DNA from: an uncultured virus (IMG/VR IMGVR_UViG_3300033141_001794)
Lineage: Duplodnaviria; Heunggongvirae; Uroviricota; Caudoviricetes
Length of the DNA: 20,000 nucleotides
IMG/VR virus record: IMGVR_UViG_3300033141_001794
Direction: 5' to 3' (one strand)
The notes under the pieces are model-generated. The model was not told the DNA's origin. It was given only the letters and a program-made list of their open reading frames with translations, and did not search any database. How positions within the stretch are numbered: the stretch's first letter is position 1; the number at the start of each line of letters is the position of its first letter. Made by a program: the position numbers and the translations under genes. This document shows positions 6,125-19,212 of this stretch, piece by piece.

Positions 6125-6126
6125 GC

Positions 6127-6381
6127 GTGAAGAAACCAAAGATTAACTATCAGTTTTTGACTTTAATGTTAAGCATTGTAGGATCCCTGGTATATGGCAC
6201 TATGCGTTTTGCAAAGCTGGAAGAGAGGGAGTTGCAGCACTACGAAAGCCAGTGTGAAAAGAATATAGTTTATATCGAAAGTATTCAAAACCTGACGTGT
6301 GCTGTAAAATGCCTTACTACTACTACAGACAGTCTCAGGTATGAAATTAAGTTTATCAATTTTAGGAATGGATTGGAATAA
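6127..6381 (+). CDS. Small protein with an N-terminal transmembrane helix
   Basis: GGAGG RBS and GTG start; hydrophobic FLTLMLSIVGSLVYG; tightly packed behind the large gene. Confidence 0.7.
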   Translation: MKKPKINYQFLTLMLSIVGSLVYGTMRFAKLEERELQHYESQCEKNIVYIESIQNLTCAVKCLTTTTDSLRYEIKFINFRNGLE

Positions 6382-6623
6382 TGTCAGATGAAATACTCGA
6401 TTTAAAAGACCAGACACCAGAAGCGCAGGCGATAGAGCCTTATACTACTAAATTAATGGATTTATTAGATCAGCGAAAGGTAATGTGGGATAAGCAGCCA
6501 GATTCAGAAGAAAAGAAGAAGTGGTTAATATCCAGGCGAGATCCCATTCTCGATATTGCTGAAACTATAGGCACTTATATATATAACGAATTTCCGGAGA
6601 TCATAGATGGTTTACGTAAATAA
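6381..6623 (+). CDS. Hypothetical protein
   Basis: TAATG stop/start coupling within the operon. Confidence 0.65.
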   Translation: MSDEILDLKDQTPEAQAIEPYTTKLMDLLDQRKVMWDKQPDSEEKKKWLISRRDPILDIAETIGTYIYNEFPEIIDGLRK

Positions 6624-6957
6624 AAATTTTAGCAGGGGCAAGATAAAAAAGATAACTCCGGAAAAGGGTGATCAATTTTACCGGTGTAACTTCTCCCAAT
6701 TGAAAGTAACAGAGATATTTAAGGGAATTAAGAATCTTGATTTCGAGGCCTGTAATCTTATGAATTGTATTCTTCCTGCTGGTACGAAGCCTCCAAAAGA
6801 CTGTTTAATTGTTCGAAAGAGCATGTGCAGTCACATTCATCCTGATGTAAGGCCTCTCTGTCCCGTAAATTGCCAACATGTAATTGATACTTATACTATT
6901 AAAATCGACAATAAGCAGGCTAACAAATCCTATAAATATGAAGACAAGGTGATATAA
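6607..6957 (+). CDS. Cys-rich hypothetical protein with short pentapeptide-like repeats
   Basis: FYRCNFSQ / FEACNLMNC repeats and a CSHIH..CPVNCQH cluster; GGAG RBS; coupled to the next gene. Confidence 0.7.
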   Translation: MVYVNKNFSRGKIKKITPEKGDQFYRCNFSQLKVTEIFKGIKNLDFEACNLMNCILPAGTKPPKDCLIVRKSMCSHIHPDVRPLCPVNCQHVIDTYTIKIDNKQANKSYKYEDKVI

Positions 6958-7964
6958 TGCCCGACAGATATTACAAATCAACCGGAAGTAACACGGCCCC
7001 CTATGATACGTGGGTCAAGGCTGCAACGGCTGCACAGACAATAATTGATCTTGCAGTAGCAGGTGACACAAACCATTATTCGGGTACAATTAATGCAATA
7101 TTAGATGTTGATACGAACTCTGGTGCAATAGGGAGTTGGATAAAACACATAGGACATAATAATGATGCGGCCCCTGTTTTAGATGGTACAAGAGTGTTGG
7201 TTGATGGCGCTGGTGTACGTGCTAATTGTATTGGCGCCTGTGATAAAAATTATCATTGGTGGGAAAATTTTGAGTTTACAAGGGCTACAGGTGATGGTGT
7301 TAATTTAGTTGACGCTCCAGATCCTCAAAACTGGGTATTTAAGAATTGTATTTCTCACACAAACGGTGCTGATGGTTGGGGTGGCGATGGGGGTGCGGGT
7401 ACTATTTATTATATACGATGTAAAGCATATAACAACACAGCAAGAGGTTGGGACAGGGCAACCAAAAACGCCAGAGTAATATTGTGTGCTTGTTATGGTA
7501 ATGGTACGGCAGGGCTTTATGAGGGTAATGGTGGGACACTTGTGCTGAACAGTTTATTTTACGACAACGGAGATGTTGCACAGAATTGTTATATTAATGT
7601 TAATGCTGAAGTGATAAACAATGTGTTTGATGGTACTAACCAAGCAAATTCAACGGGACTGCTAACAAAGCAGGATGGTGGGGTTGTGATGTTTAACAGG
7701 TTTACAAACTGCACCATAGGATTAGATGCTGACTTGGAATTTAAAATAGTGGGGTATAACTATTTCCATGACAACACCGCAGATACGGCAAATGCAGTAA
7801 ACTTAGAATTGTTGTTAAATGATCTTGGATTGGATACTAATGAGTATGATGTTGATGTTGACGATGGGTATAATAATGCCGCTACAGCAGATTATAACTT
7901 AAAAGATTCACGCACTTATAATGGTAATGGTGATGATACTGTTGACCTTGGGGTTGGAGTATAA
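6957..7964 (+). CDS. Right-handed parallel beta-helix (pectate-lyase-like) protein, putative tail spike or virion carbohydrate-binding protein
   Basis: Repeating N/C/G-rich units (NCISHTNGADGW, RCKAYNNTARGW, LCACYGNGTAGL, NSLFYDNG) and a C-terminal DYNLK. Confidence 0.7.
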   Translation: MPDRYYKSTGSNTAPYDTWVKAATAAQTIIDLAVAGDTNHYSGTINAILDVDTNSGAIGSWIKHIGHNNDAAPVLDGTRVLVDGAGVRANCIGACDKNYHWWENFEFTRATGDGVNLVDAPDPQNWVFKNCISHTNGADGWGGDGGAGTIYYIRCKAYNNTARGWDRATKNARVILCACYGNGTAGLYEGNGGTLVLNSLFYDNGDVAQNCYINVNAEVINNVFDGTNQANSTGLLTKQDGGVVMFNRFTNCTIGLDADLEFKIVGYNYFHDNTADTANAVNLELLLNDLGLDTNEYDVDVDDGYNNAATADYNLKDSRTYNGNGDDTVDLGVGV

Positions 7965-8212
7965 TGGCACAGACAGGTTCAGTAAAACGAGTTATTACAT
8001 CGGGAATACCTACAATACTTGAAACGGGTAGTGTAAAGTTTCAGATTTGCGCGGGTATTCCAAGTGCGTGGACAGCCGCAGGACCAGGCCCCGAGCCTCC
8101 AACTCCTCCCAGCGAAACCCTGAGAGTAGTCAAAAGCTCTATATCTACTTCCATAGGCCTCTCTCTTTCTGCTTTTATAATGATGATGATAATCTTAATG
8201 GTGATGGTGTAA
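7964..8212 (+). CDS. Small protein with an internal repeat, Pro-rich linker and hydrophobic C-terminus
   Basis: TGSVK..I..GIP occurs twice; PGPEPPTPP linker; AFIMMMIILMVMV tail; GGAG RBS and TAATG coupling. Confidence 0.6.
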   Translation: MAQTGSVKRVITSGIPTILETGSVKFQICAGIPSAWTAAGPGPEPPTPPSETLRVVKSSISTSIGLSLSAFIMMMIILMVMV

Positions 8213-8213
8213 T

Positions 8214-9845
8214 ATGGCAGCAGATTTAATATGTATTGGCGGTGACAGTATTAGGATGGGTTATGATAATAGGGTGGAGGCTTTAATGCCTGCAACTACT
8301 TTTTTTTATAACCCTGCTAATGATCAAGACATGCTGACGTTGTATGGTCATTTAGACACTTATTTGGCTTATATGCCAACCATTTTTCATCTTAACGCTA
8401 CATATCACGATGCGGTAGGAGGAACTACTGATGGGCAGTATGAAGCTCGATTGAGAGATGTCCTTGATAAGTTACTGTCTGTTTATAGGTTGACAATTGT
8501 TTGGGCGCTTGGAACACCTGTTGATAATCCGGTTGACGATGCAAGGGTTGTTGAATTAAACACAATAGCTACAAATGTTATAAATTCATACGGAAACGAC
8601 AGGATATCTATAAACGATTTGTATCAATTTTCGGTTGATAACGGGTTGGTGCGTCATGATGGCGTCCATTTTATAGCAGCCGATTATCAGCAAATTGCTA
8701 TTGAAGTTCAAGGGGTTTTGACCCCATTATTAAGGAGTGGAAGTATGCCTTTACGATATGGTAATTCAAGGTTTTATAGAACCATCCAGGTTAAACCTGC
8801 TAATGTGTATGTTAATGATACGAATGTGCCAGTGTGTCTTTCTGAAGCTGATACTGTCAATGTGCCTGCTGGAGCATATAGAAATGATGGGGGCGATATT
8901 GTTGTAACTGATGCAAACGGTGATCTTATACCAAGAGAAATTGCAACCTTCAATCAAGGTGCTGCTACTATGCAATTATGGTATCGTGATCCTGTGCAAA
9001 ACGTAGCCACAGGTGGCACAGAACTATATCTTCAGTGGGGCGGCTCTGACGTAAATGAAGCTAATAATCCAGTTACTTGGTTTAATAATTTTGGTGGTGC
9101 TGCTCATTGCCAACCGAGCATTCACTGTGAAGAAACTGCTGCAAATTTAACAGACAGTAGCGAGGTTTATACTGCTGCCGATGCTAATATGGTGTATAAC
9201 CAAGCAGGGCAAATAGATGGTGCAGCAGGTTTTAACGGAACAAATTCCTTAAACTCTTGGGGAGATGTTACTGCTTTAAATGGAGTGGTACGATTTACAC
9301 ATCAATACTGGATAAGAATAGTCGATATAACGGCAGCGGATATTACAGCACGAAAACGGGCAAATAACACCAGAAGATACCTTGTTTATAATACAGGTGG
9401 TTCAATGCGTGTGTATGTATGTAATGGTGCCGCCTCTTATGGGCATTTTGCTTTGGCTGGAAAGATTGCTAATAATACATGGGCGCTTGTTACCATAGTA
9501 TATGATGGTTCACTCGCAGGGGATGCAAACAGGTTGAAAATATATGTAGGCACTACTCAAATGGTGCTTGCTTTTGTCAATGCCATACCCGCAACTGCCG
9601 GGAACATGGCTGCCATTGCCTTTGAAATGGGAGACAATGGAGGCATAAGCTCACTTGATGGACGGATAGATGAGAACAGAATTATAGCCGGCGCACTATC
9701 ATTAAATCAAATAAGAGGCCAATATGACAACCAGAACGAGTTCGGTGCAAACGGGACTGTTAATGTCGGTGAAATAGTGTCGTTTCAGACAAACAGAATA
9801 ATCCAATCTCACATGGGACTGACTCAAAACGCAATGTCTTTGTAA
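8214..9845 (+). CDS. SGNH/GDSL hydrolase + DUF2341-like + LamG/concanavalin-A-like domain protein (putative tail or receptor-binding protein)
   Basis: GDS nucleophile motif (IGGDSI), block III HLNAT.HD and block V DGVH; a middle DIVVTDANG..IPREI..LWYR segment; LamG-like WALVTIVYDG..LKIYV..GRIDE. Confidence 0.75.
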   Translation: MAADLICIGGDSIRMGYDNRVEALMPATTFFYNPANDQDMLTLYGHLDTYLAYMPTIFHLNATYHDAVGGTTDGQYEARLRDVLDKLLSVYRLTIVWALGTPVDNPVDDARVVELNTIATNVINSYGNDRISINDLYQFSVDNGLVRHDGVHFIAADYQQIAIEVQGVLTPLLRSGSMPLRYGNSRFYRTIQVKPANVYVNDTNVPVCLSEADTVNVPAGAYRNDGGDIVVTDANGDLIPREIATFNQGAATMQLWYRDPVQNVATGGTELYLQWGGSDVNEANNPVTWFNNFGGAAHCQPSIHCEETAANLTDSSEVYTAADANMVYNQAGQIDGAAGFNGTNSLNSWGDVTALNGVVRFTHQYWIRIVDITAADITARKRANNTRRYLVYNTGGSMRVYVCNGAASYGHFALAGKIANNTWALVTIVYDGSLAGDANRLKIYVGTTQMVLAFVNAIPATAGNMAAIAFEMGDNGGISSLDGRIDENRIIAGALSLNQIRGQYDNQNEFGANGTVNVGEIVSFQTNRIIQSHMGLTQNAMSL

Positions 9846-9872
9846 ATATATATATTACCTCTTATATAGCTT

Positions 9873-9905
9873 AAAGCTCTTCAGAAACGGAGAGCTTTTT
9901 TATTT
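9873..9905 (+). terminator. Rho-independent terminator ending the structural module
   Basis: AAAGCTCT(TC)-loop-(GG)AGAGCTTT hairpin followed by a T-tract. Confidence 0.8.
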
Positions 9906-9915
9906 GAGATTTAGC

Positions 9916-9944
9916 TTGACTTTCCATTAACATTGTAGTAACTT
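9916..9944 (+). promoter_or_regulatory. Sigma70-like promoter for the early operon
   Basis: TTGACT-17 bp-TAACTT immediately after the terminator. Confidence 0.55.
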
Positions 9945-9988
9945 ATAAGAGAAAGGAATAACTAAACCATTTATCAAAGGATAAACTC

Positions 9989-10156
9989 ATGTTGAAGATT
10001 CCCGAAGACCAAAAGGCAACAAAGCCAATATTGGTTACAAAGATCCAGCATAAGCAGATCTGGAAGCTCGCAAAGAAGAGAAATCAGAAGATTACAGAAC
10101 TTATAGATAGCTGGCTGGGCTACGATGAATTGAAGGAAGAGCTTAATGCGTCTTAA
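9989..10156 (+). CDS. 55-aa putative ribbon-helix-helix (Arc/CopG-like) regulator, absent from the ORF track
   Basis: AAAGGA RBS; MLKIPEDQKATKPILVTKIQHKQIWKLAKKRNQKITELIDSWLGYDELKEELNAS fits a beta-strand/helix/helix pattern; first gene after the promoter. Confidence 0.6.
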   Translation: MLKIPEDQKATKPILVTKIQHKQIWKLAKKRNQKITELIDSWLGYDELKEELNAS

Positions 10157-10229
10157 CCCATCAGAGAACAGAAAGCGTGTCCAGCGCTTATTGAGAGATA
10201 TAAAAAAGGTTCGATCTGATGAAAAACAT

Positions 10230-10337
10230 GAGCCGGAAGGTAGCGCAGCGGAGCGCAAGGGCTTTCCCTGGTTTGGGAGTATCTTGCTCGTTCAAATCGA
10301 GGCAAGAGGGCCTGTCCGTAGCTTTCCGGCTCTTTTT
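10230..10337 (+). ncRNA. Candidate structured RNA with tRNA-like D-arm and T-loop elements
   Basis: Closing helix GAGCCGGAAG/TTTCCGGCTC followed by a T-run; inner GCGC-AGCGGA-GCGC, TCCC-N6-GGGA and TCTTGCTCG-TTCAAAT-CGAGGCAAGA. Confidence 0.4.
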
Positions 10338-10361
10338 AATTAACCCTATCAAGGAGTTGTT

Positions 10362-10550
10362 ATGGAAACAGTAAGATTAATAGTTTGTTCAAATGTTAGC
10401 GGAGAAGAAGAGACAATGACATTTACAGACGATTTTGAAGTAAGTTCTGAAGATTATTGCTCGTCCGGTCAAACAGTAGATATTGACAAAAAAATTGAAA
10501 TGGATGTTCCTTCAGGCTTTCCAATGAATCATACTTTTGTAAGGAATTAA
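10362..10550 (+). CDS. Hypothetical acidic protein
   Basis: AAGGAG RBS, ATG start. Confidence 0.6.
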   Translation: METVRLIVCSNVSGEEETMTFTDDFEVSSEDYCSSGQTVDIDKKIEMDVPSGFPMNHTFVRN

Positions 10551-10631
10551 TTGAAACGCAGCGCAGACCTCTTAGCAATAGCGATAGTATTGGGATTGAT
10601 AGCACTTACCCTCATTATCATTTATTTATAA
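10551..10631 (+). CDS. 26-aa single-pass membrane peptide, absent from the ORF track
   Basis: AAGGA RBS and TTG start; MKRSADLLAIAIVLGLIALTLIIIYL fills the gap exactly. Confidence 0.5.
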   Translation: MKRSADLLAIAIVLGLIALTLIIIYL

Positions 10632-10641
10632 AGGAGATCAC

Positions 10642-10872
10642 ATGGCAGACTCGTTAGGCATTACACTCAAGAAGGAACTGTTAATCGACATGGCCAAAGC
10701 TCGCAGCGGGGAGATATTGCCCTGCACAGCTCGGAAGACTTTAGACAATTGTTTCACAACCAGTCCAGAAGGCGTTTTATTTCTTTGGTATGTTGAAGCG
10801 GAATCCAAAACCACTCGCCTTATAAGCGAGAATACTGATATTAACGAGTATTTAACAAAGGAGGCACAATGA
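10642..10872 (+). CDS. Hypothetical protein
   Basis: AAGGAG RBS; overlaps the erf start. Confidence 0.7.
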   Translation: MADSLGITLKKELLIDMAKARSGEILPCTARKTLDNCFTTSPEGVLFLWYVEAESKTTRLISENTDINEYLTKEAQ

Positions 10873-11612
10873 TGAAAAAAGACCTGGTTCCTCAGAACGA
10901 GCAGGCACCAGTAACCGCAGTTAATTCACCAGCTGACATAATGCAGTTAGCTATGAACAAGGACCTTGATCTGGACCGCATTGAGAAGATGCTTGAACTC
11001 CAGACCAAGTATGAAGAGCGTGAGGCAAAGAAGGCCTATACACAGGCCATGGCTAACTTTAAAGCCAATCCTCCGGAAATATCCAAGGATAAGAATGTCC
11101 AATATCAAACTTCAAAGGGACAGACAAATTATAGCCATGCTACCCTTGGGAATGTAACCCAGAAGATTAACCAAGCTCTTGCCGGTCACGATCTTTCTGC
11201 AGGGTGGAAAACAGAGCAGGATAAGGATAATATCACAATTACCTGTACAATAACTCATGCTCTTGGACATAGCGAAAGCACTTCCCTGTCGGCTGGTGCT
11301 GACACTTCTGGAGGGAAAAACAGTATCCAGGCCGTAGGGTCCACAATCACATATCTGGAAAGATATACTCTTCTTGCCCTCACCGGTCTTGCTACCCATG
11401 ATCAGGACGATGATGGCCGGGGAAGTGAAGGTGAAGGCCTTGTTTATATCACAGACAATCAGAAGTCTACTATTGTGGATATGATTGCAGACACTTCGGC
11501 CAATGAAGCAAGGTTCTTAAAATATCTCGGTGCAGAATCGATTGATACTATTCCGGCCACATTTTATAACAGGGCTATTAAGGCATTGGAAGTTAAAAAG
11601 GAGCAGGCATGA
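10869..11612 (+). CDS. erf: Erf-family single-strand annealing protein
   Basis: Erf signature CTITHALGHSES...KNSIQAVGSTITYLERYTLLALTGLA...DDDG; AAGGAGG RBS. Confidence 0.9.
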   Translation: MMKKDLVPQNEQAPVTAVNSPADIMQLAMNKDLDLDRIEKMLELQTKYEEREAKKAYTQAMANFKANPPEISKDKNVQYQTSKGQTNYSHATLGNVTQKINQALAGHDLSAGWKTEQDKDNITITCTITHALGHSESTSLSAGADTSGGKNSIQAVGSTITYLERYTLLALTGLATHDQDDDGRGSEGEGLVYITDNQKSTIVDMIADTSANEARFLKYLGAESIDTIPATFYNRAIKALEVKKEQA

Positions 11613-12214
11613 TAATCGTAGAAGGAATTAAGCAAAACAGTCTGGAATGGTACGCTCTTAAGCTCGGCATTCCCAGTGCTTCCAGCTTTGACAAGATAAT
11701 TACAACCAAGGGAGTTGTATCAAAGACGCGAGCGAAGTATCTGTATAAACTGGCTGGCGAGGTTGTAACTGGTGAGCGTGAGGAGGGATATAACAATTCC
11801 AATATGGATCGAGGCCATGAGCGCGAAGAAGAGTCCAGAAATGCCTATGAGCTCATTAAAGATGTTGAGGTGGAACAGGTAGGCTTTGTCTATTTTGATG
11901 AAAAGAAAGACATTGGCTGTTCTCCTGATGGCCTTGTGGGTGAAGATGGAGGATTCGAGACAAAGGACGCTCTTCCTCATGTTCATCTTGATCGATTAGA
12001 GAATGGCTGGTCAGAGTCACAGCATTTTCAGCAGGTCCAGGGAAGTCTTTATGTTACTGGCCGGAAGTGGTGGGACCTTGTAAGTTATTCCAGAGGGTTC
12101 AAGCCTTTAATCATCAGGTTTGAACGTGACGAGGAGTTTATTAAGAAGTTAGCTGTTGAACTCCGCTTATTCAATAACAACTTAAAAGATGTCGTTAAAA
12201 AGTATTCTGTATAG
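11609..12214 (+). CDS. YqaJ/lambda-exonuclease-family nuclease
   Basis: QNSLEW..LKLGIPSAS, MDRGHERE, CSPDGLV, FETK and QVQG motifs; ATGA-coupled to erf. Confidence 0.9.
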   Translation: MIIVEGIKQNSLEWYALKLGIPSASSFDKIITTKGVVSKTRAKYLYKLAGEVVTGEREEGYNNSNMDRGHEREEESRNAYELIKDVEVEQVGFVYFDEKKDIGCSPDGLVGEDGGFETKDALPHVHLDRLENGWSESQHFQQVQGSLYVTGRKWWDLVSYSRGFKPLIIRFERDEEFIKKLAVELRLFNNNLKDVVKKYSV

Positions 12215-12222
12215 GAGATATT

Positions 12223-13053
12223 ATGGAAACCACTGAACTCATGACTATTAACCAGGAGAACGCTCTTGAAGTATTTACCGGAGACAAGCTGCCGGAATAT
12301 TTAAAAGCTATTAAGGAAGATGCTTTAAACTTTGTTGCAGATCCTGATACTGCTACTGGGAGAAAGCAGATAGCATCAAAAGCCCACTCTATTGCAAAAG
12401 AGAAGGTCCGTATAGATAATATTGGCAAGGTCCTGGTGGCTGACTGGAAAGCAAAGAGTTATATGGTTGATGAAGCCAGGAAGAAGACCCGGGATTTTAT
12501 GGACGATGTTAAAAAGGAGGTTCGCCTGCCATTGACCGAGTATGAGGATGCTAAGAAAGCGGTAGAAGAAGCAGAGCGCCAAGCTATCAAGAAGGAGATG
12601 GAATGGGAAGAGGCCCTGGTTGAAGATGATTTCTTTAACCGGAAAAAGGAGGTTGAGCGCAAAGAGGCTGAGTTGAAAGCCCAGGAAGAAGAGCGTCTTG
12701 CTAAAGAGAAGGCTCTCCAGGCAGAGATTGATCAGAAGAACCGTGAAGAGAGGATAAAACTGGAAGCCAAAGAGAAAGCGGAACGCGAAGCAGCTGATAA
12801 GATTGAGGCACTAAAGCAGGTCCAGCGTGACAAGGTAGCAAAGGAACTCGCTGAGAAAGAGCGCATTGAGGAAGAGAAGCGGGAGGCCCAGAGACTTGCT
12901 GATCGGAAAGCTGCTAACCTGAATCACCAGCGGAAGATCAACCGGGAAGCGCTCGAGGGCTTTGTTGACCATGGCCTTACAGAAGAGCTTGCTAAAAACA
13001 TCATTACCCTGATAGCCAAGGGTGAAATCAAACACATTTCTATTAAGTATTAA
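12223..13053 (+). CDS. Coiled-coil phage protein, E/K/A-rich
   Basis: AGGAG RBS; long charged helical region. Confidence 0.75.
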   Translation: METTELMTINQENALEVFTGDKLPEYLKAIKEDALNFVADPDTATGRKQIASKAHSIAKEKVRIDNIGKVLVADWKAKSYMVDEARKKTRDFMDDVKKEVRLPLTEYEDAKKAVEEAERQAIKKEMEWEEALVEDDFFNRKKEVERKEAELKAQEEERLAKEKALQAEIDQKNREERIKLEAKEKAEREAADKIEALKQVQRDKVAKELAEKERIEEEKREAQRLADRKAANLNHQRKINREALEGFVDHGLTEELAKNIITLIAKGEIKHISIKY

Positions 13054-13056
13054 AGG

Positions 13057-13281
13057 ATGGGTGATATGGGAGACATGGCAGATTTGATGTTAGATGGTAC
13101 AATGTGTTCGGTATGCGGAGTGTATCTGGGTAGTGACGCTGACTACCCTCAAATGTGTGCAGATTGCGAAAAAGAAGAGAAGGAGGCTCGCGCAGAGGAC
13201 CAACACGATGAAACCAGGAAGCCTGCTAACCTGACATGGAACAGAGAAACCGGAAAGTATGAGTCTGCAAATGCCAAATAG
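13057..13281 (+). CDS. Small zinc-finger-like protein
   Basis: CSVC...CADC. Confidence 0.65.
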   Translation: MGDMGDMADLMLDGTMCSVCGVYLGSDADYPQMCADCEKEEKEARAEDQHDETRKPANLTWNRETGKYESANAK

Positions 13282-13525
13282 AACCCTGTATCCCTGCACC
13301 TGTAACGGCTTTGAGAATAATCCTTATTGCGTCTTCCATTATTCAAAGGAAACCAGAATAAGAATATCACCAGTGATTCAGGGATTAAAAGATCAATATC
13401 AATTTAATCACCAGGAAGCTTATGAGAGAGGTGTTGAATTAATTTGTAACGAATTGAAACAGGAAGAAAAAGAACGTAAGCTATTGATAGAAAGAAAGTA
13501 CTATAATTCACTTAAAGTTGCTTAA
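13259..13525 (+). CDS. Hypothetical protein
   Basis: CTC..CVFH motif; overlaps the previous gene; start uncertain. Confidence 0.55.
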   Translation: MSLQMPNRTLYPCTCNGFENNPYCVFHYSKETRIRISPVIQGLKDQYQFNHQEAYERGVELICNELKQEEKERKLLIERKYYNSLKVA

Positions 13526-13603
13526 AAAGAATGTGAGTGCGTATAGCGACTTGTTGTATGACATTATGAGAATCTTTAAATTGTAAAAAGGAGGTTTTGC
13601 TAT

Positions 13604-13912
13604 ATGGAATACCAAATAGTAGTTGAAAGTGACCCGTTTAGAATGGCAGAGTGCGTAAATGATATGTGTAAAGATGGGTGGATGCCGGTAGGTTCGCACC
13701 ACGTTGCTTTTGAGCCTGGTCAAATATGGTATTACTCACAAGCGGTAGTCCGCAAAACTCCTAACACTAAGGAAGCTTTACAAAACGACACACAACAACT
13801 ACAGGCTAAAATTGCCGATTGTGCATTGGTGATTGAAAATAGTGAAAAGGGGCTTGGAAGTATCACGAAAGGTGCAATTGCACACAGGCTTCGGCAACTA
13901 TCAGCCGTGTAG
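13604..13912 (+). CDS. Cassette 1: DUF1737-like protein
   Basis: MEYQIV...VNDMCKDGWMPVG...YSQAVV pattern; AAGGAGG RBS; the stop lies in the hairpin right arm. Confidence 0.6.
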   Translation: MEYQIVVESDPFRMAECVNDMCKDGWMPVGSHHVAFEPGQIWYYSQAVVRKTPNTKEALQNDTQQLQAKIADCALVIENSEKGLGSITKGAIAHRLRQLSAV

Positions 13913-13923
13913 GAACGTTGTCG
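13787..13923 (+). repeat. attC-like site S1
   Basis: CAAC-AA-CTACA-GGCT-AAAA-TTGCCGA ... TCGGCAA-CTATC-AGCC-[G]-TGTAG-GAAC-GTTG. Confidence 0.8.
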
Positions 13924-13987
13924 ATCAATCCCGCTGGGGTTGGGCAGCACGATTTTAATTGTAGTTTAACGAATTGGAGGCTAAATT

Positions 13988-14284
13988 ATGGGAGTATCGG
14001 GTAAAAGTGTAAAGAAGTTTTCAGAAGGAAATTTAGCTATTACAAATGGCGTTCATTTAGACAGCGACTATAAACATGTTTTTTTTGACATAACTGAATG
14101 TGATGATAAGAAGGTTAAGCTAAAAAGTCACTGGAATAGTACTGAGTTTAATTGTGTAATAGAAACTGATACTTTTGGCGAACATACAACAATTAAACAG
14201 ACTTCTGAGGTAGAAAAATTTCTTTTTCATATAAAGTCAAAAAAATTTAAGGTAAGACCGATGAAAGGTGACAGGATTGGATAA
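13988..14284 (+). CDS. Cassette 2: hypothetical protein
   Basis: GGAGG RBS, ATG start. Confidence 0.65.
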   Translation: MGVSGKSVKKFSEGNLAITNGVHLDSDYKHVFFDITECDDKKVKLKSHWNSTEFNCVIETDTFGEHTTIKQTSEVEKFLFHIKSKKFKVRPMKGDRIG

Positions 14285-14428
14285 CAATTCGTTAAAGGAA
14301 AAAGCAAATTGAACGTCACAATGGAAAAAATAACCAGCGGGCACGCGGATGTTAAACACCGCTTTAATCGACAACGCCCTCTTACAAACCGATTGAGAGC
14401 TTGTCTAATGTCCACTCCAGCCGGACAG

Positions 14429-14503
14429 CCGACAACAATCTTAGGGGAAAATATCAGGACGAAAAGAAGCCCTGACACGTTCCCCCGTAAGAGGGCGTTG
14501 CAG
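14429..14503 (+). repeat. attC-like site S2
   Basis: CAAC-AA-TCTTA-GGGGAA-AATA-TCAGG ... CCTGA-CACG-TTCCCC-[CG]-TAAGA-GGGC-GTTG. Confidence 0.75.
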
Positions 14504-14564
14504 GAAATTAAACCGCTAAGAGCATAATTGTAGTTTGGCTCATTAGCAGAAAAGGATTGTAAAA

Positions 14565-14873
14565 ATGGAAATTGATTACGGAAATGGAAAAACTAAATAT
14601 GGGCCTGGTGTGCAAATAGAATTAAGCGGCGGCGAGGTGGCAATTGCAATAGACACATATTTAACAGCACACAATGTATATATATCCGGCCCCAGAACTA
14701 TTACAGTAAACAATGAGCTGTGTAAAATTGGGAGTGTCTATGTTGATCCATCTGGGTTTGCAATTGCTAATGGTATAAAATATAGTGGTAGAGGTTCAAG
14801 CCTTCGCCAAAAGAGAATTAAGGAAAACGCGGTTGAACATCCTGCAACACCGAAAGGCCAAAATGACAAGTAA
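14565..14873 (+). CDS. Cassette 3: hypothetical protein
   Basis: AAAGGA RBS; the stop lies in the S3 loop. Confidence 0.7.
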   Translation: MEIDYGNGKTKYGPGVQIELSGGEVAIAIDTYLTAHNVYISGPRTITVNNELCKIGSVYVDPSGFAIANGIKYSGRGSSLRQKRIKENAVEHPATPKGQNDK

Positions 14874-14899
14874 CTTCGGCCATTCCGGGAACGTTGTCG
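14840..14899 (+). repeat. attC-like site S3 (shortest)
   Basis: CAAC-A-CCGAAA-GGCC ... GGCC-[A]-TTCCGG-GAAC-GTTG. Confidence 0.75.
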
Positions 14900-14944
14900 G
14901 AAATACCGAATCGATTGTAAATTGGGTGATAAACGGAGGTTAAA

Positions 14945-15220
14945 ATGCAATTTTTAGACAAGTTGGGGTGGCCTGTTGAAAGAGTAAAGGGCAGGCCGGT
15001 GTTAAATTTTTTGCGGTTGTTAATTCACACCCGTAAAATTAAGCGGGGCAAGTTTGTTTACAAGCAGGAACCATCACCCAATGTAACTTGTGGAAATTCG
15101 GAACATACCGACAACAAGACACAGCCTAAAACTTCGGCTTTTGGTGATGCGGTTCGTAAACATGCCGAAAAAGAAGGAATTGATTTGGATGTTAAGCCTA
15201 AACAAATTTACGGTGGGTAG
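14945..15220 (+). CDS. Cassette 4: hypothetical basic protein
   Basis: GGAGGT RBS; the stop lies in the S4 loop. Confidence 0.65.
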   Translation: MQFLDKLGWPVERVKGRPVLNFLRLLIHTRKIKRGKFVYKQEPSPNVTCGNSEHTDNKTQPKTSAFGDAVRKHAEKEGIDLDVKPKQIYGG

Positions 15221-15252
15221 CCTTCGCATCAGGCGTGTGCAAGACGTTGGAG
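15108..15252 (+). repeat. attC-like site S4
   Basis: CAAC-AAGA-CACA-GCCT ... AGGC-[G]-TGTG-CAAGAC-GTTG. Confidence 0.7.
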
Positions 15253-15282
15253 TAAATTTTTTCTTTTGAGATTGGAGTTTTT

Positions 15283-15519
15283 ATGCGTGATAATGATATT
15301 GAAAGGTTAGACTATCACCTTAGTCGTAAAGAGTTTAAATCGCTCCGTTTTGTGTGGGATCGCATAAAAAAGGCTTTAAGCGGAAGCGAAAAAACTCCCA
15401 CCAACAACGACAGCCCAAAATTGCATTGTCCTAAGTGTGGCGCAACCGACAATATAGCACAATCGACAGAGGGGCATAAGTATCATTGTTTTAGGTGTGA
15501 TAATTACTGGAAAAAATAA
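15283..15519 (+). CDS. Cassette 5: protein with a C-terminal zinc ribbon
   Basis: GGAG RBS; CPKCG...CFRC. Confidence 0.7.
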   Translation: MRDNDIERLDYHLSRKEFKSLRFVWDRIKKALSGSEKTPTNNDSPKLHCPKCGATDNIAQSTEGHKYHCFRCDNYWKK

Positions 15520-15550
15520 TGCAACTGTCGGGCGTGTCTTGACGTTGTGA
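15399..15550 (+). repeat. attC-like site S5
   Basis: CAAC-AAC-GACA-GCCC-AAAA-TTGCATT ... AATGCAA-CTGTC-GGGC-[G]-TGTC-TTGAC-GTTG. Confidence 0.8.
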
Positions 15551-15583
15551 CGAAATTAATCCTTTAGAATATTGGAGTTGCGA

Positions 15584-15835
15584 ATGAAATTAAAAGAAGC
15601 TATGAAAACAATCGGGAGTTTGGTATCTGGTTGCGGTTATTCAAAGGATGTTGATGCGTATAATGTCATTCGCAAAGCATTAGAGGAAGCGGATGAACTG
15701 TCGCACAACACCGCCAGGGATGCCATCGCTTTCGTTGAACAGGTAAAAGGGTGTAGTAAGCGGGTGGCCGGTTCGAACAAAGTATTAGTTGCATTAATCA
15801 ATCAGGCTGCGGTCATAGCGCAACGGCACCCATAG
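15584..15835 (+). CDS. Cassette 6: hypothetical protein
   Basis: The GGAG RBS favours ATG 15584 over TTG 15572; the stop lies in the S6 right arm. Confidence 0.65.
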   Translation: MKLKEAMKTIGSLVSGCGYSKDVDAYNVIRKALEEADELSHNTARDAIAFVEQVKGCSKRVAGSNKVLVALINQAAVIAQRHP

Positions 15836-15850
15836 CGTAATCCGTTGTTT
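15703..15850 (+). repeat. attC-like site S6
   Basis: CAAC-AC-CGCCA-GGG-[A]-TGCC ... GGCA-CCC-[A]-TAGCG-TAATCC-GTTG. Confidence 0.75.
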
Positions 15851-15894
15851 TCAATTAACCGCCGATTATAGGTCGGCAGAAAGAAAGGTAACAG

Positions 15895-16437
15895 ATGGAT
15901 GATAAACAAACGTTAGTGGAGTCCGGCAAGCAGTTGACGGCAACTTTGCCAAATGATACGATGCGTATTATGAGCATTGCTATTGAAACCTTAGCCGTGG
16001 CAAGGGATAATTTAAAGAAACGTCTTGGCAACTGTAATGTTTCACAAATGGTTGCAGAAAGTGACGATAGATATTCTGCGATATTAACAGAACCTAATGG
16101 TAAAAAACATTTCTGGAAAAAGGACGGTTCTTATGATGGTAACGATAAGGAGTGCTCTGACGACATTTATAAGGAAGCGGTTAACACTGCGGAATTGAAA
16201 AACCAGATTATAGGGGTTATTAACCAGGCCGACAATCTAACAATTAAACAGATGCACGCAAATGTTGACAATATTTTCAATTCCTTGCCCTCACGGGAAA
16301 AACAACAAACGCAGCCTGCAATTAAGTTACTACAGGAGTTTTTGGAAGTTTACCAGTCGTGCGGAATATCAAGTGAATTAGCAAACTTTGCTGACAAGGT
16401 ACATAGTTTCGTAACTGAACAGCAGGCGGGTGCGTAA
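15895..16437 (+). CDS. Cassette 7: hypothetical protein
   Basis: AAAGGT RBS; the stop lies in the S7 right arm. Confidence 0.7.
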   Translation: MDDKQTLVESGKQLTATLPNDTMRIMSIAIETLAVARDNLKKRLGNCNVSQMVAESDDRYSAILTEPNGKKHFWKKDGSYDGNDKECSDDIYKEAVNTAELKNQIIGVINQADNLTIKQMHANVDNIFNSLPSREKQQTQPAIKLLQEFLEVYQSCGISSELANFADKVHSFVTEQQAGA

Positions 16438-16447
16438 TCCGTTGTCC
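16299..16447 (+). repeat. attC-like site S7
   Basis: CAAC-AA-ACGCA-GCCTGC..AGTTAC ... GTAACT..GCAGGC-[GGG]-TGCGT-AATCC-GTTG. Confidence 0.75.
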
Positions 16448-16474
16448 AAAATATTTAAAATTGGAGTGTTGTAA

Positions 16475-16726
16475 ATGGAAAATTTAACAAGGTATTGTTT
16501 ATTAAAAGGGGCGTTTGATGGATGTTCTTGCAAAATCGTTGAGGTAGACGATGGTGATTATACCAAATTTTCCGACATTAAGGATATTTTAAACAAATCG
16601 GACAACAAAGCTATGGACGCAATTATCGACAAAGTAGACGAATATATCAATAGCCATTGGGAGAGCGAAATGGTTGTTGAACGGCTTCGTTCTTTTGCTG
16701 CCTGGTGTCGACAACAGCGCCAGTAG
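16475..16726 (+). CDS. Cassette 8: hypothetical protein
   Basis: GGAG RBS; the stop lies in the S8 right arm. Confidence 0.7.
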   Translation: MENLTRYCLLKGAFDGCSCKIVEVDDGDYTKFSDIKDILNKSDNKAMDAIIDKVDEYINSHWESEMVVERLRSFAAWCRQQRQ

Positions 16727-16739
16727 CTAAACGTTGTAT
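16600..16739 (+). repeat. attC-like site S8
   Basis: CAAC-AA-AGCTA-TGG-[A]-CGC..TCGACA ... TGTCGA..GCG-CCA-[G]-TAGCT-AAAC-GTTG. Confidence 0.8.
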
Positions 16740-16770
16740 GCAATAAATTTTTTCAAAAAGGAGTTGTATA

Positions 16771-17091
16771 ATGGCCGAAAAATTATTACCATGTCCGTTT
16801 TGCGGGAAAAATCCAAAGGTTTTAGCAAGAGGTTCAATCATGTGTAGTAATGACAGTTGTTCGGCAGGCCCAATGGCTATGATGTCAATGTTTGCTTCTA
16901 AAAAGGCGTGTGTAAAAGGCTGGAATCATCGGCCACAAATTAAGGAAGAAAAAATTGACAACACACAACACACAAAGGCTACAATTGCTTTGGAGGACGT
17001 GGGTAAAATTTTAAAAAGTTATCCACGTGAAATTAACCCAAATTTTGCCGCAAACCTTATTGTTGAAATGGAAAAAAAGGCGCAACAATAG
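16771..17091 (+). CDS. Cassette 9: Lar-like (restriction alleviation family) zinc-binding protein
   Basis: LLPCPFCG...CSNDSC...KKACVKGWNHRP matches the Lar-family pattern; AAGGAG RBS. Confidence 0.7.
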   Translation: MAEKLLPCPFCGKNPKVLARGSIMCSNDSCSAGPMAMMSMFASKKACVKGWNHRPQIKEEKIDNTQHTKATIALEDVGKILKSYPREINPNFAANLIVEMEKKAQQ

Positions 17092-17111
17092 CCCTTTGCT
17101 GTACGTTGCAC
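16962..17111 (+). repeat. attC-like site S9
   Basis: CAAC-ACA-CAAA-GGCTA-CAA-TTGC ... GCAA-CAA-TAGCC-[C]-TTTG-CTGTAC-GTTG. Confidence 0.75.
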
Positions 17112-17150
17112 AAAATTAAACCGCTAAGAGCAGAATTGTAGTTTGGCAAA

Positions 17151-17375
17151 ATGATGAAACAACTTAAATATTACAAATATGAGGGCTTAAACTGCCACCA
17201 TTGCAGGCGGTCACATTATGATGGTCACGGAAATGGAACGTGTCCAATTGAATTTAAAAAGGGCGCACATGAAAAGAAATTTGTAAACCCTGGCGAAACA
17301 AATCTTATATGCAGATACTTTGAAAAGATTTTGCCAAAAGAAAGTGCGGAAAACATTGAAAACAGTATATTATGA
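17151..17375 (+). CDS. Cys-containing hypothetical protein (possible last cassette, no intact downstream site)
   Basis: CHHC...CP...ICRYF; shares its leader with cassette 3. Confidence 0.6.
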   Translation: MMKQLKYYKYEGLNCHHCRRSHYDGHGNGTCPIEFKKGAHEKKFVNPGETNLICRYFEKILPKESAENIENSIL

Positions 17376-17408
17376 CTTAGAAAGAACGTGTAAAGAAAGG
17401 GGCTTAAG

Positions 17409-17954
17409 GTGAATGAGAAATTTGTAGACATACCAGGATGGAAAGGGCTTTATCAGATTTCTAATTTAGGTAGAGTTAAAAGTTTAGCAAGACCTCTTTT
17501 TAATGGGGCGGGATATTTTAAATCAAAGGAACAAATATTAAAAACAAGCAAAAATATTAATGGTTATCTATCTTTACGTTTGTGCGGGAGCGGGGAACGC
17601 TACAAGGTAGATGTTAGTAGGTTAATGAAATTGGCATTTTTTAACAATTCAAAGCTGGAAATAGACCACATAAACGGAGACAAAACAGATAATCGGTTAG
17701 ACAATCTTAGGCTTTGTACTCATTCACAAAATCATTTTAATATCAAAAAGGCGGGAAGGTGTTCTTCTCGGTTTAAGGGTGTTTATTTTATAAAAAAAAC
17801 CAATAGGTGGTGTGCAAGAATAACGGTGAAAGGTAAAACTTATAGACTCGGCAATTTTTGTACAGAAGAAGACGCAGCAAAAGCCTATGATGTTGAAGCC
17901 AAAAAGCGTTGTGGAGGATTTGCTGTACTAAATTTAAGCTCCGAAAAATCGTGA
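17409..17954 (+). CDS. NUMOD4-HNH-AP2 homing endonuclease
   Basis: DIPGWKGLYQISNLGRVKSL (NUMOD4); IDHINGDKTDNRLDNL (HNH); SRFKGVY..WCARI..LGNF.TEEDAAKAYD (AP2). Confidence 0.9.
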   Translation: MNEKFVDIPGWKGLYQISNLGRVKSLARPLFNGAGYFKSKEQILKTSKNINGYLSLRLCGSGERYKVDVSRLMKLAFFNNSKLEIDHINGDKTDNRLDNLRLCTHSQNHFNIKKAGRCSSRFKGVYFIKKTNRWCARITVKGKTYRLGNFCTEEDAAKAYDVEAKKRCGGFAVLNLSSEKS

Positions 17955-17997
17955 AGGAATACTACCAGAAGAAGGACCAGGATAAATGCAAGGAGAA

Positions 17998-18090
17998 ATG
18001 ATTCTATACTGGCTTGGGGCTATCGGTGGCATAGGAGCTGCAATAGCATTTGGATATATTATTTTTAAACTTATTACGAGGAGGGATTGA
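17998..18090 (+). CDS. 30-aa single-pass membrane peptide (holin-like?), absent from the ORF track
   Basis: AAGGAG RBS; MILYWLGAIGGIGAAIAFGYIIFKLITRRD; the stop overlaps the peptidase start. Confidence 0.55.
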   Translation: MILYWLGAIGGIGAAIAFGYIIFKLITRRD

Positions 18091-18398
18091 TGACTACCTT
18101 ATTCAGAATGAATGTTATCTGGGACGTATGTGACGAGATCGAGGAGGCTCGCAGGCTTTTAGAGAAGTACCTGGCTTCAAAGGGTAAAGAGTTAGTTGTA
18201 ACCTCTGCAAACGATAGCCAGCACTCAGATGGATCCCTTCATCCTTCAGGAAAGGCTTTTGATATCCGGAAGGTCGCGGGAAAATTAACCCGTAAAATAA
18301 TATACAACCTCATTAAACACCTTGGATTTCAGTATAAAGATGTTATTCCTACGTCTTGGGGATTTCATATTGAATATCAACCGAAAAAAAAGAAATAA
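18090..18398 (+). CDS. Peptidase M15 / DD-peptidase-fold protein (putative endolysin)
   Basis: VVTSAND..H...SLHPSGKAFDIR...FHIEY matches SxHxxGxAxD...HxE; GGAGG RBS. Confidence 0.75.
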   Translation: MTTLFRMNVIWDVCDEIEEARRLLEKYLASKGKELVVTSANDSQHSDGSLHPSGKAFDIRKVAGKLTRKIIYNLIKHLGFQYKDVIPTSWGFHIEYQPKKKK

Positions 18399-18399
18399 C

Positions 18400-18428
18400 T
18401 TGCAAACCAGTAACCATTATGCTATATT
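18400..18428 (+). promoter_or_regulatory. Sigma70-like promoter of the replication operon
   Basis: TTGCAA-17 bp-TATATT with an extended -10 TG. Confidence 0.6.
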
Positions 18429-18441
18429 GATATTATCATGT

Positions 18442-18541
18442 TAACCGGCAAGAAATCATGCAAATCATTTACCCAGTAAAAGCCTTCCTCCAAAGGATAG
18501 CCCCGCTGTTGTTTACTTGCCGGTTACAACACGGACTGGGT
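18442..18541 (+). ncRNA. Structured leader RNA, architecture reminiscent of C4/CI antisense RNAs
   Basis: ACCCAGT/ACTGGGT closing helix; inner CCG-TGTTGT/ACAACA-CGG hairpin whose loop CTTGCCGGTTA complements upstream TAACCGGCAAG. Confidence 0.5.
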
Positions 18542-18561
18542 ACCTTATATTGTGAGCAGCT

Positions 18562-19212
18562 ATGGCCCTAAGAGATCAACCCTATATTCCTCTTTATGTA
18601 CAGGACTTTTTAACAGACGAAAAGCTTAACGAGTGTAGTGCAGAAGCAGTTGGAGTATATATAAAAATTATGTGTGTTATGCACAAATCTAAAGAGTATG
18701 GTGTTATTTTGTTAAAGCAAAAAGACAAGCAAAAGGATAAGCAAATAACTAATTTTGCTTTAAAGCTTGATAGTCATATGTCTTTTAAGGTTGCTGTTAT
18801 TGAAAGCGCTCTTGGTGAATTAATAGAGGAAGAGGTTTTAAGGGTAGATGGTGATAGGTTAATACAAAAAAGGATGGTAAGCGACAATGATATAAGCACT
18901 AAGCGTTCTTTGGCTGGTAAAAAGGGAGGGAAAAAAACACAATTTGCTAAAGCAAACTATGAAGCAAACTCTGAAAATGAATATGTAATTGAAAGTGCAA
19001 ATAAAAAAGATATAAAAAAAGCTCTTATAGAAAAACTTAAAAAAGAACTTCAAAACTTAAGCACAATAAATCCTGAAGTAATAGGAGGAGAGTTAAGTGA
19101 TAATTTAAACCTTCCTTTTTATGGATGGGAAAGCTTTTTAGCAAATACTCCTGTAGATGATTTAGAACTTGCTCTTAACTTTTTAGTCAGTTATGATACG
19201 GAGAAGGTATGA
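18562..19212 (+). CDS. Putative replication initiator / replisome organiser with a YdaU/DUF1376-like N-terminus
   Basis: PYIPLYVQDFLTD..CSAEAVGVYIKIMC.MH; LIQKRMV; RSLAGKKGG. Confidence 0.7.
   Translation: MALRDQPYIPLYVQDFLTDEKLNECSAEAVGVYIKIMCVMHKSKEYGVILLKQKDKQKDKQITNFALKLDSHMSFKVAVIESALGELIEEEVLRVDGDRLIQKRMVSDNDISTKRSLAGKKGGKKTQFAKANYEANSENEYVIESANKKDIKKALIEKLKKELQNLSTINPEVIGGELSDNLNLPFYGWESFLANTPVDDLELALNFLVSYDTEKV

Follow-up and report, generated by a model that had tools for sequence, protein, structure and literature searches.

Positions 13553-17108 of a 20,000-nucleotide (nt) stretch of DNA from an uncultured virus of the Caudoviricetes (IMG/VR record IMGVR_UViG_3300033141_001794; the whole stretch is referred to below as the window) probably form an integron-like array. 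It comprises nine single-gene cassettes and lies in the early/accessory region of a phage genome. Each cassette ends in a hairpin of 52-150 nt that is conserved in structure and variable in sequence. The hairpin structure is selected on the antisense strand, and in structural terms the 5' end of each cassette is part of its own 3' hairpin. The textbook example of recombination sites recognised by shape rather than sequence is the integron, which is regarded as a bacterial system. In the present case, a phage lineage without a detectable integrase appears to store anti-host and accessory genes, for instance Lar-like restriction alleviation, in an integron-like array, and near-identical genomes differ by eight cassettes versus one. 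The array provides a concrete route to asking how phages swap counter-defence genes so fast, and it points to a structure-specific recombinase. Moreover, the array supplies naturally occurring cases in which recombination sites overlap genes, with a geometry that is inverted relative to attC.

Core motif, hairpins and the folded strand

The motif CGTTG-N4-6-AAT occurs ten times in the window, compared with a mean of 2.04 (both strands) in shuffled sequences, none of 200 shuffles reaching ten. Nine of these matches lie on the + strand between 13916 and 17116, with cores starting at 13916, 14496, 14892, 15245, 15543, 15843, 16440, 16732 and 17104, and CGTTG is invariant in all nine. Core-to-core spacing is 292-597 bp, the same values that the initial annotation had given. 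That annotation had also described a following N4-5-(A/C)AAT; the AAT stands, and the spacer is 4-6 nt long. The preceding gene, stop codon included, ends 3-25 nt before the core; at S2, the exception, the distance is 212 nt. The next start codon follows at 23-59 nt, and each cassette gene has its own ribosome-binding site (RBS).

The tenth match (CGTTG-N6-AAT, - strand, 7556-7569) lies in a tail-like gene, is kept in the relatives L003 and L004, has no partner arm (E -8.3; energies E are in kcal/mol) and is probably a chance match. The feature at 13553, where the initial annotation had the array begin, turned out to be an unstructured GTTG core and not a hairpin. This array-start core may take the part of attI. 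A partner arm was sought at this core, at the degenerate CGTTA at 14290 and at the - strand match at 7569, and none was found (E -6.0 to -8.3).

Pairing was assessed in a set of 19 sites: nine in the window, one in L003, four in L023 and five in L033. The 29-nt right arm of each site was scored against the upstream region (-175 to -28) of every site. Cognate pairs reached a mean of -14.2 kcal/mol versus -10.4 (standard deviation 2.3) for non-cognate ones. The cognate region ranked first in 8 of the 19 cases and among the top three in 16; S3, L003-7649 and L023-5273 ranked 10-11. The genomic background gave a similar picture, since the nine window sites have bottom-strand energies of -12.4 to -20.5 kcal/mol, compared with a mean of -7.7 (standard deviation 1.6, minimum -12.7) for 69 other nGTTG sites at window positions 200-13300, and eight of the nine are more stable than all 69. 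The nine inverted repeats of the initial annotation are thus real. Its statement that the stems differ but co-vary is borne out as well: a site's own partner fits better than those of other sites, and each stem position is occupied by 3-5 pair types among the 318 Watson-Crick and 41 G.T pairs of the 15 sites described below.

The partner arm begins with CAAC and lies 52-150 nt upstream of the core in the window. In folds of 158 nt, GTTG was paired with a CAAC located 120-140 nt upstream in seven of the nine sites. The sites had been described as separating the genes. This is true of the right cores; the left arms and loops, however, lie within the 3' end of the upstream open reading frame (ORF) in eight of the nine window sites. 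As a result of this overlap with 125-150 nt of coding sequence, the last ~40-45 amino acids (aa) of each protein are encoded inside the hairpin.

The common architecture was derived from 15 sites of the window, L003, L023 and L033 that were anchored at both cores. S4, S6 and L023-5273 were dropped, as they gave no arm or a different arm when anchored, and L023-5852 was left out because it fitted weakly (-8.6). On the bottom strand, 5'-CAACG pairs with the (T/C)GTTG that ends the 3' arm, giving a basal helix of 4-6 bp. Next to it, a 3-nt interruption occurs on the 5' (AAC) arm in 12 of the 15 sites, mostly with nothing opposite. Beyond it come 5-6 bp (10 of 15), a further bulge, 1-3 nt long and again on this arm, at least six more base pairs and a large loop. 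Additionally, the proximal GCAAC pairs with a TTGC just past the left arm, forming a third helix. In A1, mean column identity is 43% and the core alone is invariant. MAFFT with RNAalifold (13 sites) recovered helix 1 alone, because the variable stems are not aligned in register. Rfam returned a single weak, unrelated match elsewhere in the window and none in the array.

Folding of both strands, a check proposed in the initial annotation, favoured the bottom (antisense) strand. It is more stable at 16 of the 19 sites with DNA parameters (mean difference 1.4 kcal/mol) and at 17 of the 19 with RNA parameters (5.4 kcal/mol). There are 43 G.T pairs in the bottom-strand folds versus 5 in the top-strand folds. 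Six canonical attC sites from the integron carried by Vibrio phage MK672802, treated by the same method as a control, deviate in the same direction (12 versus 3), and a bottom-strand G.T bias is described for published attC sites (PMC5027507). Given that both G.T pairs and stability are biased to the antisense strand, an mRNA structure of the sense strand is unlikely. In other words, the strand bias points to a folded single DNA strand, as for attC.

The same observations bear on the possibility that the motifs are promoters of the extracytoplasmic function (ECF) sigma type (-35 AAC, N16-18, -10 CGTT) or mRNA processing or stability hairpins, a reading that can be given next to no credence. 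An AAC does lie 16-18 nt upstream of CGTTG in six of the nine window sites, and the distance to the start codon would suit a promoter. However, the conservation of the proximal GCAAC is explained by its pairing with TTGC in the third helix. The complete relative G002 (74,434 nt, CheckV 100% complete, of which L033 is a part) has no match to sigma-70 region 2, although a host sigma factor might act instead. As for mRNA hairpins, the G.T pairs of the antisense strand would correspond to C.A mismatches in the sense-strand RNA. The promoter form AAC-N17-CGTTG was dropped as a candidate after the GCAAC/TTGC pairing and the G.T bias had been seen.

Cassette exchange and the ends of cassettes

Exchange boundaries were determined in all available near-identical relative pairs (99-100% identity); L024 ends before the array. 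The initial annotation had suggested comparing related phages for cassette gain, loss or reordering exactly at GTT, and all five breakpoints fall at the GTTG core. L003 matches the window at 6148-13561 and 16731-19023, with 99.3% and 100% identity, and carries one small gene in place of the window's eight cassettes. The left break comes directly after GTTGTA, at 13561, and on the right identity resumes from the ACGTTG of S8, at 16731. The window and L004 are 99.98% identical up to the CGTTGT of S6 (15848) and then diverge. L022 and L023 are 99.2% identical up to GTTGT before diverging, and L019 and L017 are 99.9% identical up to GTTG, where BLAST extends 8 nt on partial matches.

A second signature is found at the cassette starts. 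By eye, in cassettes 2, 3, 4, 7 and 8 the left 7-mer is exactly complementary, read in reverse, to the right 7-mer of the preceding site and not to that of the cassette's own site. For 19 cassettes, nine of the window, one of L003, four of L023 and five of L033, each hairpin was closed either with the first 12 nt of its own cassette or with the 12 nt next to it downstream in the array. Closure by the own-start tail gave -21.3 kcal/mol versus -17.4 for the following tail, being better in 18 of 19 cases and equal in one (Wilcoxon p = 2e-4). In 16 of the 19 cassettes it was also the best tail of its array, where 2.9 would be expected by chance; in window cassettes 1 and 5 it ranked second, and in cassette 9 sixth. 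S4, the weakest automated fit of the window, reached -20.0 and ranked first when closed with its own-start tail. In the Vibrio control, the own-start tail was better in three of five cases, with not all control sites mapped. Such complementarity is expected if cassettes pass through a circle and the crossover lies inside the core, as in integrons. It is not predicted by recombination between regulatory repeats.

The cassette proteins reflect the overlap between genes and hairpins. In cassettes 1 and 9, recognisable domains fill the first ~50 aa only: a DUF1737 match below the Pfam cut-off in the former and a Lar restriction-alleviation match in the latter. The rest of both proteins consists of a polar linker, often ..DN(T/K).. 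from the left arm, and a tail that the hairpin loop encodes. In cassette 7, the tail from the loop (16309-16401) shares 71% identity over 31 aa with that of an L033 gene (7844-7936), while the stems and N-terminal parts of the two differ. This is a hint that the tails encoded in the hairpins are exchanged independently of the N-terminal domains, perhaps by way of the left core. Were that core used as well, the same sites would bring different N-terminal domains together with different C-terminal tails.

These tails could also be the trace of selfish palindromic insertions, resembling miniature inverted-repeat transposable elements or Rickettsia palindromic elements, that entered in frame at gene 3' ends and produced the array as a by-product. 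ORFs that read through the hairpin in eight of nine window sites, the tail of cassette 7 recurring in a gene without other similarity, and ~45-aa extensions on Lar-like and DUF1737 domains would all agree with such insertions. Very little credence can nevertheless be given to this explanation. The copies are alike in structure and share almost no sequence, as the low column identity of A1 illustrates, and they are confined to co-oriented arrays, not found elsewhere in the 74-kb relative. Furthermore, whole cassettes are exchanged rather than elements, and the start of a cassette completes its hairpin.

Comparison with known systems and the search for a recombinase

The array shares numerous features with integrons. 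The cassettes are single-gene and co-oriented, and the sites are conserved in structure rather than in sequence, with bulged bases and a variable terminal loop. An invariant AAC/GTT stands at the base, a G follows the bottom-strand AAC, and the bottom strand is favoured, with G.T pairs. As in integrons, the crossover lies in the core, which assigns the first bases of each cassette to that cassette's own site, and an unstructured first site heads the array. Spans of 52-157 nt also agree with a canonical integron fragment, or cluster of attC sites lacking integron-integrases (CALIN), in which ordinary attC cassettes were captured from, and are still moved by, the host's classical IntI. CALINs with at least two attC sites have been published for 17 of 10,705 phage genomes, and five of six phage attC sites tested were recombined by IntI1 (PMC9892861). 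The phage CALIN TJE1 has three attC sites (PMC9892861), versus nine here.

A captured CALIN is nevertheless unlikely, as the geometry of the sites is the mirror image of attC. Across the 15 anchored sites, 84 unpaired nt lie on the arm of the cleaved AAC versus 40 on the other, whereas the Vibrio attC control gave 27 and 43 by the same method. In canonical attC sites, the extrahelical bases belong to the R''-L'' arm, which faces the bottom-strand AAC (PMC2727003, PMC5027507). In experiments with Vibrio cholerae repeats, a shift of these bases to the opposite arm changed which strand was chosen and placed the crossover at the other core (PMC2727003). In the present arrays, the crossover remains at the right-hand core despite the mirrored bulges; therefore, a classical IntI acting classically is not the simplest fit. 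The core is nnnCAAC/GTTGnnn, with only position 4 of the 7-mer fixed (e.g., GTTGTCG, GTTGCAG), as opposed to the extended attC consensus 5'-RYYYAAC-3' / 5'-GTTRRRY-3' (PMC5027507). An interruption does stand where attC has its unpaired central spacer between the R and L boxes, but it is mostly a one-sided 3-nt bulge, where the Vibrio control sites have 2 x 2 internal loops. Unlike attC, the hairpin is embedded in the ORF, within its last 125-150 nt. Each cassette also differs from those of integrons in having its own RBS and often a conserved leader, and no intI was found in the window or the complete relative. The sites are best regarded as working like attC without belonging to the canonical attC family; the description 'integron-like' holds, and 'an integron' does not.

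Another precedent is provided by the promoter early stem-loops (PeSLs) of T4-type phages. They too occupy a hyperplastic region of small phage genes, lie between a stop codon and the next RBS, and bound indels and replacements, and circular by-products have been reported (PMC2839356, PMC4122927). If the present sites were PeSL-like regulatory cassettes, the repeats would be expression signals shuffled by ordinary or relaxed homologous recombination through Erf/YqaJ. The order of stop codon, repeat, Shine-Dalgarno sequence and start codon is that of PeSLs (PMC2839356), 38-nt and 43-nt leader-plus-RBS modules are duplicated before unrelated genes, and Erf and YqaJ are encoded 1.3 kb upstream of the array. 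However, PeSLs consist of sigma-70 promoters and local stem-loops and are driven by homology (PMC2839356, PMC4122927). At the sites described here there is no consistent sigma-70 promoter or terminator: 20 promoter-like and 3 terminator-like matches were obtained, and none appears repeatedly at the cores. The stems span long distances and are biased to the antisense strand, with the partner arm 50-150 nt away inside the ORF and G.T pairs on the antisense strand, and the cassette ends show circular permutation about a fixed core. The sequence common to two sites is often only 5-6 nt long, and own-start complementarity does not follow from such a system. A PeSL-like origin is thus very unlikely.

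Folded single-stranded DNA is also the substrate of conservative cut-and-join reactions by the TnpA of IS200/IS605 elements and by XerCD at the attP of CTX phage. Neither is known to have cassette arrays; in addition, no Y1 transposase match was obtained in G002, and nothing resembling a dif core was seen. Synthetic attC sites placed within arbitrary sequence (PMC7439510) likewise overlay a structure-specific site on other sequence. They are engineered, whereas here the coding overlap is natural and the rule. On phage cassette arrays of this kind, the literature search yielded only PMC9892861 and the PeSL papers, and no description of antisense-strand, coding-embedded, mirror-geometry sites in phages was found.

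Several results, besides the mirrored geometry, weigh against an integron-like array. Among the 31 ORFs of the window there is no recombinase match besides Erf, and no tyrosine recombinase. G002 has no match to PF00589, TIGR02249 (integron integrase), PF00239 (Resolvase) or PF01797 (Y1 transposase), and neither PHROGs (81 ORFs) nor Pfam (68 ORFs) returned a recombinase when its ORFs were scanned. No PF00589 (Phage_integrase) match was present in five further array-bearing fragments. Minimum free energy (MFE) z-scores against dinucleotide shuffles are near zero in 40- and 80-nt windows (-2.1 to +0.8) and weak in 158-nt windows from -150 to +8 (means of -0.8 and -1.5), S2 alone being strong (-5.9/-7.2). 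The weak scores are attributed to the insensitivity of this test to long-range arms that close 70-100-nt coding loops. Of the shuffled controls that the initial annotation had called for, it can be said that plain MFE folds are no better than shuffles, but the cognate/non-cognate and genomic-null tests do separate the sites. Finally, the 38-nt leader after S2 and S9 and the 43-nt leader of two L033 cassettes end at or near the start codon and not at the core, which means that ordinary recombination also acts.

A test for a complete integron found no intI beside the array; the genes upstream are co-oriented small ORFs. The initial annotation had proposed mobile cassettes moved by an IntI-like or other recombinase. 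Cassette exchange is supported by the breakpoints and the own-start complementarity, but the recombinase was not found. Since neither the window nor the complete relative yielded one, the enzyme is presumed to act in trans. It might be encoded by the host or elsewhere in the phage, or belong to an unrecognised family. In the mechanism suggested by the sequences, the hairpins would fold from single-stranded DNA, and a conservative structure-specific recombinase would cut and rejoin inside the invariant (C)GTTG/CAAC(G) core. Cassettes would be excised as circles and reinserted, deleted or replaced as units. Expression of the cassettes is probably by read-through transcription, because each gene has its own RBS. 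A more specific version of the integron-like reading can be put forward only tentatively, as somewhat short of an even chance. It holds that this is a phage-specific, structure-guided system apart from classical integrons, with mirror-attC sites in the 3' coding ends of the cargo, hairpin-encoded tails and a non-IntI recombinase, either compact, Xer-like and encoded elsewhere or of an unrecognised family.

Genomic setting and related arrays

All genes of the window are on the + strand, and the DNA is that of a phage (Table 1). The array lies between the Erf/YqaJ recombination genes and the replisome organizer; small ORFs stand in a row after YqaJ, and a Lar-like gene follows.

Table 1. Features of the cassette array and neighbouring genes in the window (E, energy in kcal/mol).
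Feature	Positions	Strand	Remarks
DarB-like polyvalent protein, C-terminal 2,040 aa	2-6124	+	DarB-like antirestriction, SNF2 helicase and LPD38
Tail-fibre-like genes	after DarB-like protein	+
Erf	10869-11612	+	library scans
YqaJ exonuclease	11609-12214	+	library scans
Array start, unstructured core	13550-13561	+	GTTG 13553-13556; no partner arm, E -6.0
Cassette 1 gene, 102 aa	13604-13912	+	weak DUF1737 N-terminus; C-terminal ~40 aa encoded within hairpin
Hairpin S1	13792-13920	-	left ACAAC from 13792, right CGTTG 13916-13920; E -15.7 to -16.6; stem pattern 4 bp/bulge/5/1/6/2/8
Cassette 2 gene, 98 aa	13988-14284	+	sole cassette gene ending before its hairpin
Hairpin S2	14371-14500	-	perfect 14-bp stem, 14372-14385 / 14487-14500
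38-nt leader, two copies	14505-14542 and 17113-17150		~93% identical; precede two unrelated genes
Cassette 3 gene, 102 aa	14565-14873	+
Hairpin S3, short form	14844-14896	-	52-nt span; pattern 5 bp/3-nt bulge/6/1/9
Cassette 4 gene, 91 aa	14945-15220	+
Hairpin S4	15111-15249	-	left CAAC 15112-15115 by eye; E -13.3
Cassette 5 gene, 78 aa	15283-15519	+	zinc-ribbon-like tail
Hairpin S5	15404-15547	-
Cassette 6 gene	15578-15835	+	ORF listed from TTG 15572; in-frame ATG 15578
Hairpin S6	15705-15847	-	left CAAC 15706-15709; 22 bp, E -15.2; no arm in anchored search
Cassette 7 gene, 180 aa	15895-16437	+
Hairpin S7	16302-16444	-
Cassette 8 gene, 83 aa	16475-16726	+
Hairpin S8	16602-16736	-	identity with L003 resumes within it
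Cassette 9 gene, 106 aa	16771-17091	+	Lar-like restriction-alleviation N-terminus, hairpin-encoded tail
Hairpin S9, last of array	16965-17108	-
First gene past last core, 74 aa	17151-17375	+	no hairpin of its own; 38-nt leader common with cassette 3
HNH endonuclease	17409-17954	+	NUMOD4 and AP2 domains; two genes past last core
Replisome organizer	18562-19212	+

GenBank phage records gave no near match to the window; a scan of genome contigs gave no match, and a metagenome scan returned distant relatives only. The 180-aa protein of cassette 7 had no match among viral contigs. A tblastn search with 13 window proteins (array genes and neighbours, one of them mis-framed) against all other loci gave one partial match. 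The nearest matches of a relative's terminase are in phages of Flavobacteriia (33% identity), and those of Erf are in a cyanophage and Xanthomonas phages (40% identity).

The same kind of array is present in three other groups of sequences, reached through Erf, the replisome organizer and a conserved 64-aa gene: L022/L023 (with L110), L017/L019, and L033. The contig of L110 contains the first core alone, L017 has one structured site, and L019 ends 50 nt past its first core. In G002, the exact motif has nine matches, and four of the six on the + strand lie in the array at 68.6-69.7 kb. In all three groups, the first core of the array is unstructured, reads TAGTTG-N5-AAT and is located at the 64-aa gene's stop codon. 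This gene of 64-65 aa (L023 4142-4336; L033 6708-6905; L017 7528-7716; also in L019 and L110) always immediately precedes the first core. Its L023 and L033 versions are 54% identical; it has no family match, and in the window lineage an unrelated 88-aa gene takes its place. The 64-65-aa gene could be a platform gene or an accessory factor of recombination.

No such array was present in ~100 other related loci. An nhmmer profile of the right arm, run over the loci, recovered the known arrays together with weak matches in L108 and L017. A structure scanner applied to 1.35 Mb of loci at a threshold of -14 kcal/mol or lower gave 132 matches versus 98 in reversed sequence, and so is not specific alone; reversed sequence is a poor null for true sites, because hairpins are kept on reversal. 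Scanner clusters with the motif were the already-known arrays only. Other clusters that were checked (L031, L094 and L095) are without the motif, and those in L005, with 60% G+C, were not inspected.

Leaders recur outside the window as well: a related version of its 38-nt leader follows L023 site 5852, and the 43-nt leader-plus-RBS duplicate of L033 stands after sites 7978 and 8742. NinB/Orf recombination-mediator genes and genes resembling Holliday-junction resolvases occur just upstream of the arrays in L023 (3312-4161) and L033 (6348-6701), the place that Erf and YqaJ occupy in the window. In G002, a Holliday-junction resolvase gene is located directly upstream of the array, and L023 has a weak match to such a gene. 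G002 also encodes a 2,327-aa ORF at the same relative position as the giant polyvalent protein of the window, at least two HNH genes and one GIY-YIG gene. Radical SAM genes are found at both ends of the 74-kb G002 record (L105 14-865, L108 12141-13007), a possible sign of a terminal repeat or of an assembly overlap in a circularly permuted genome.

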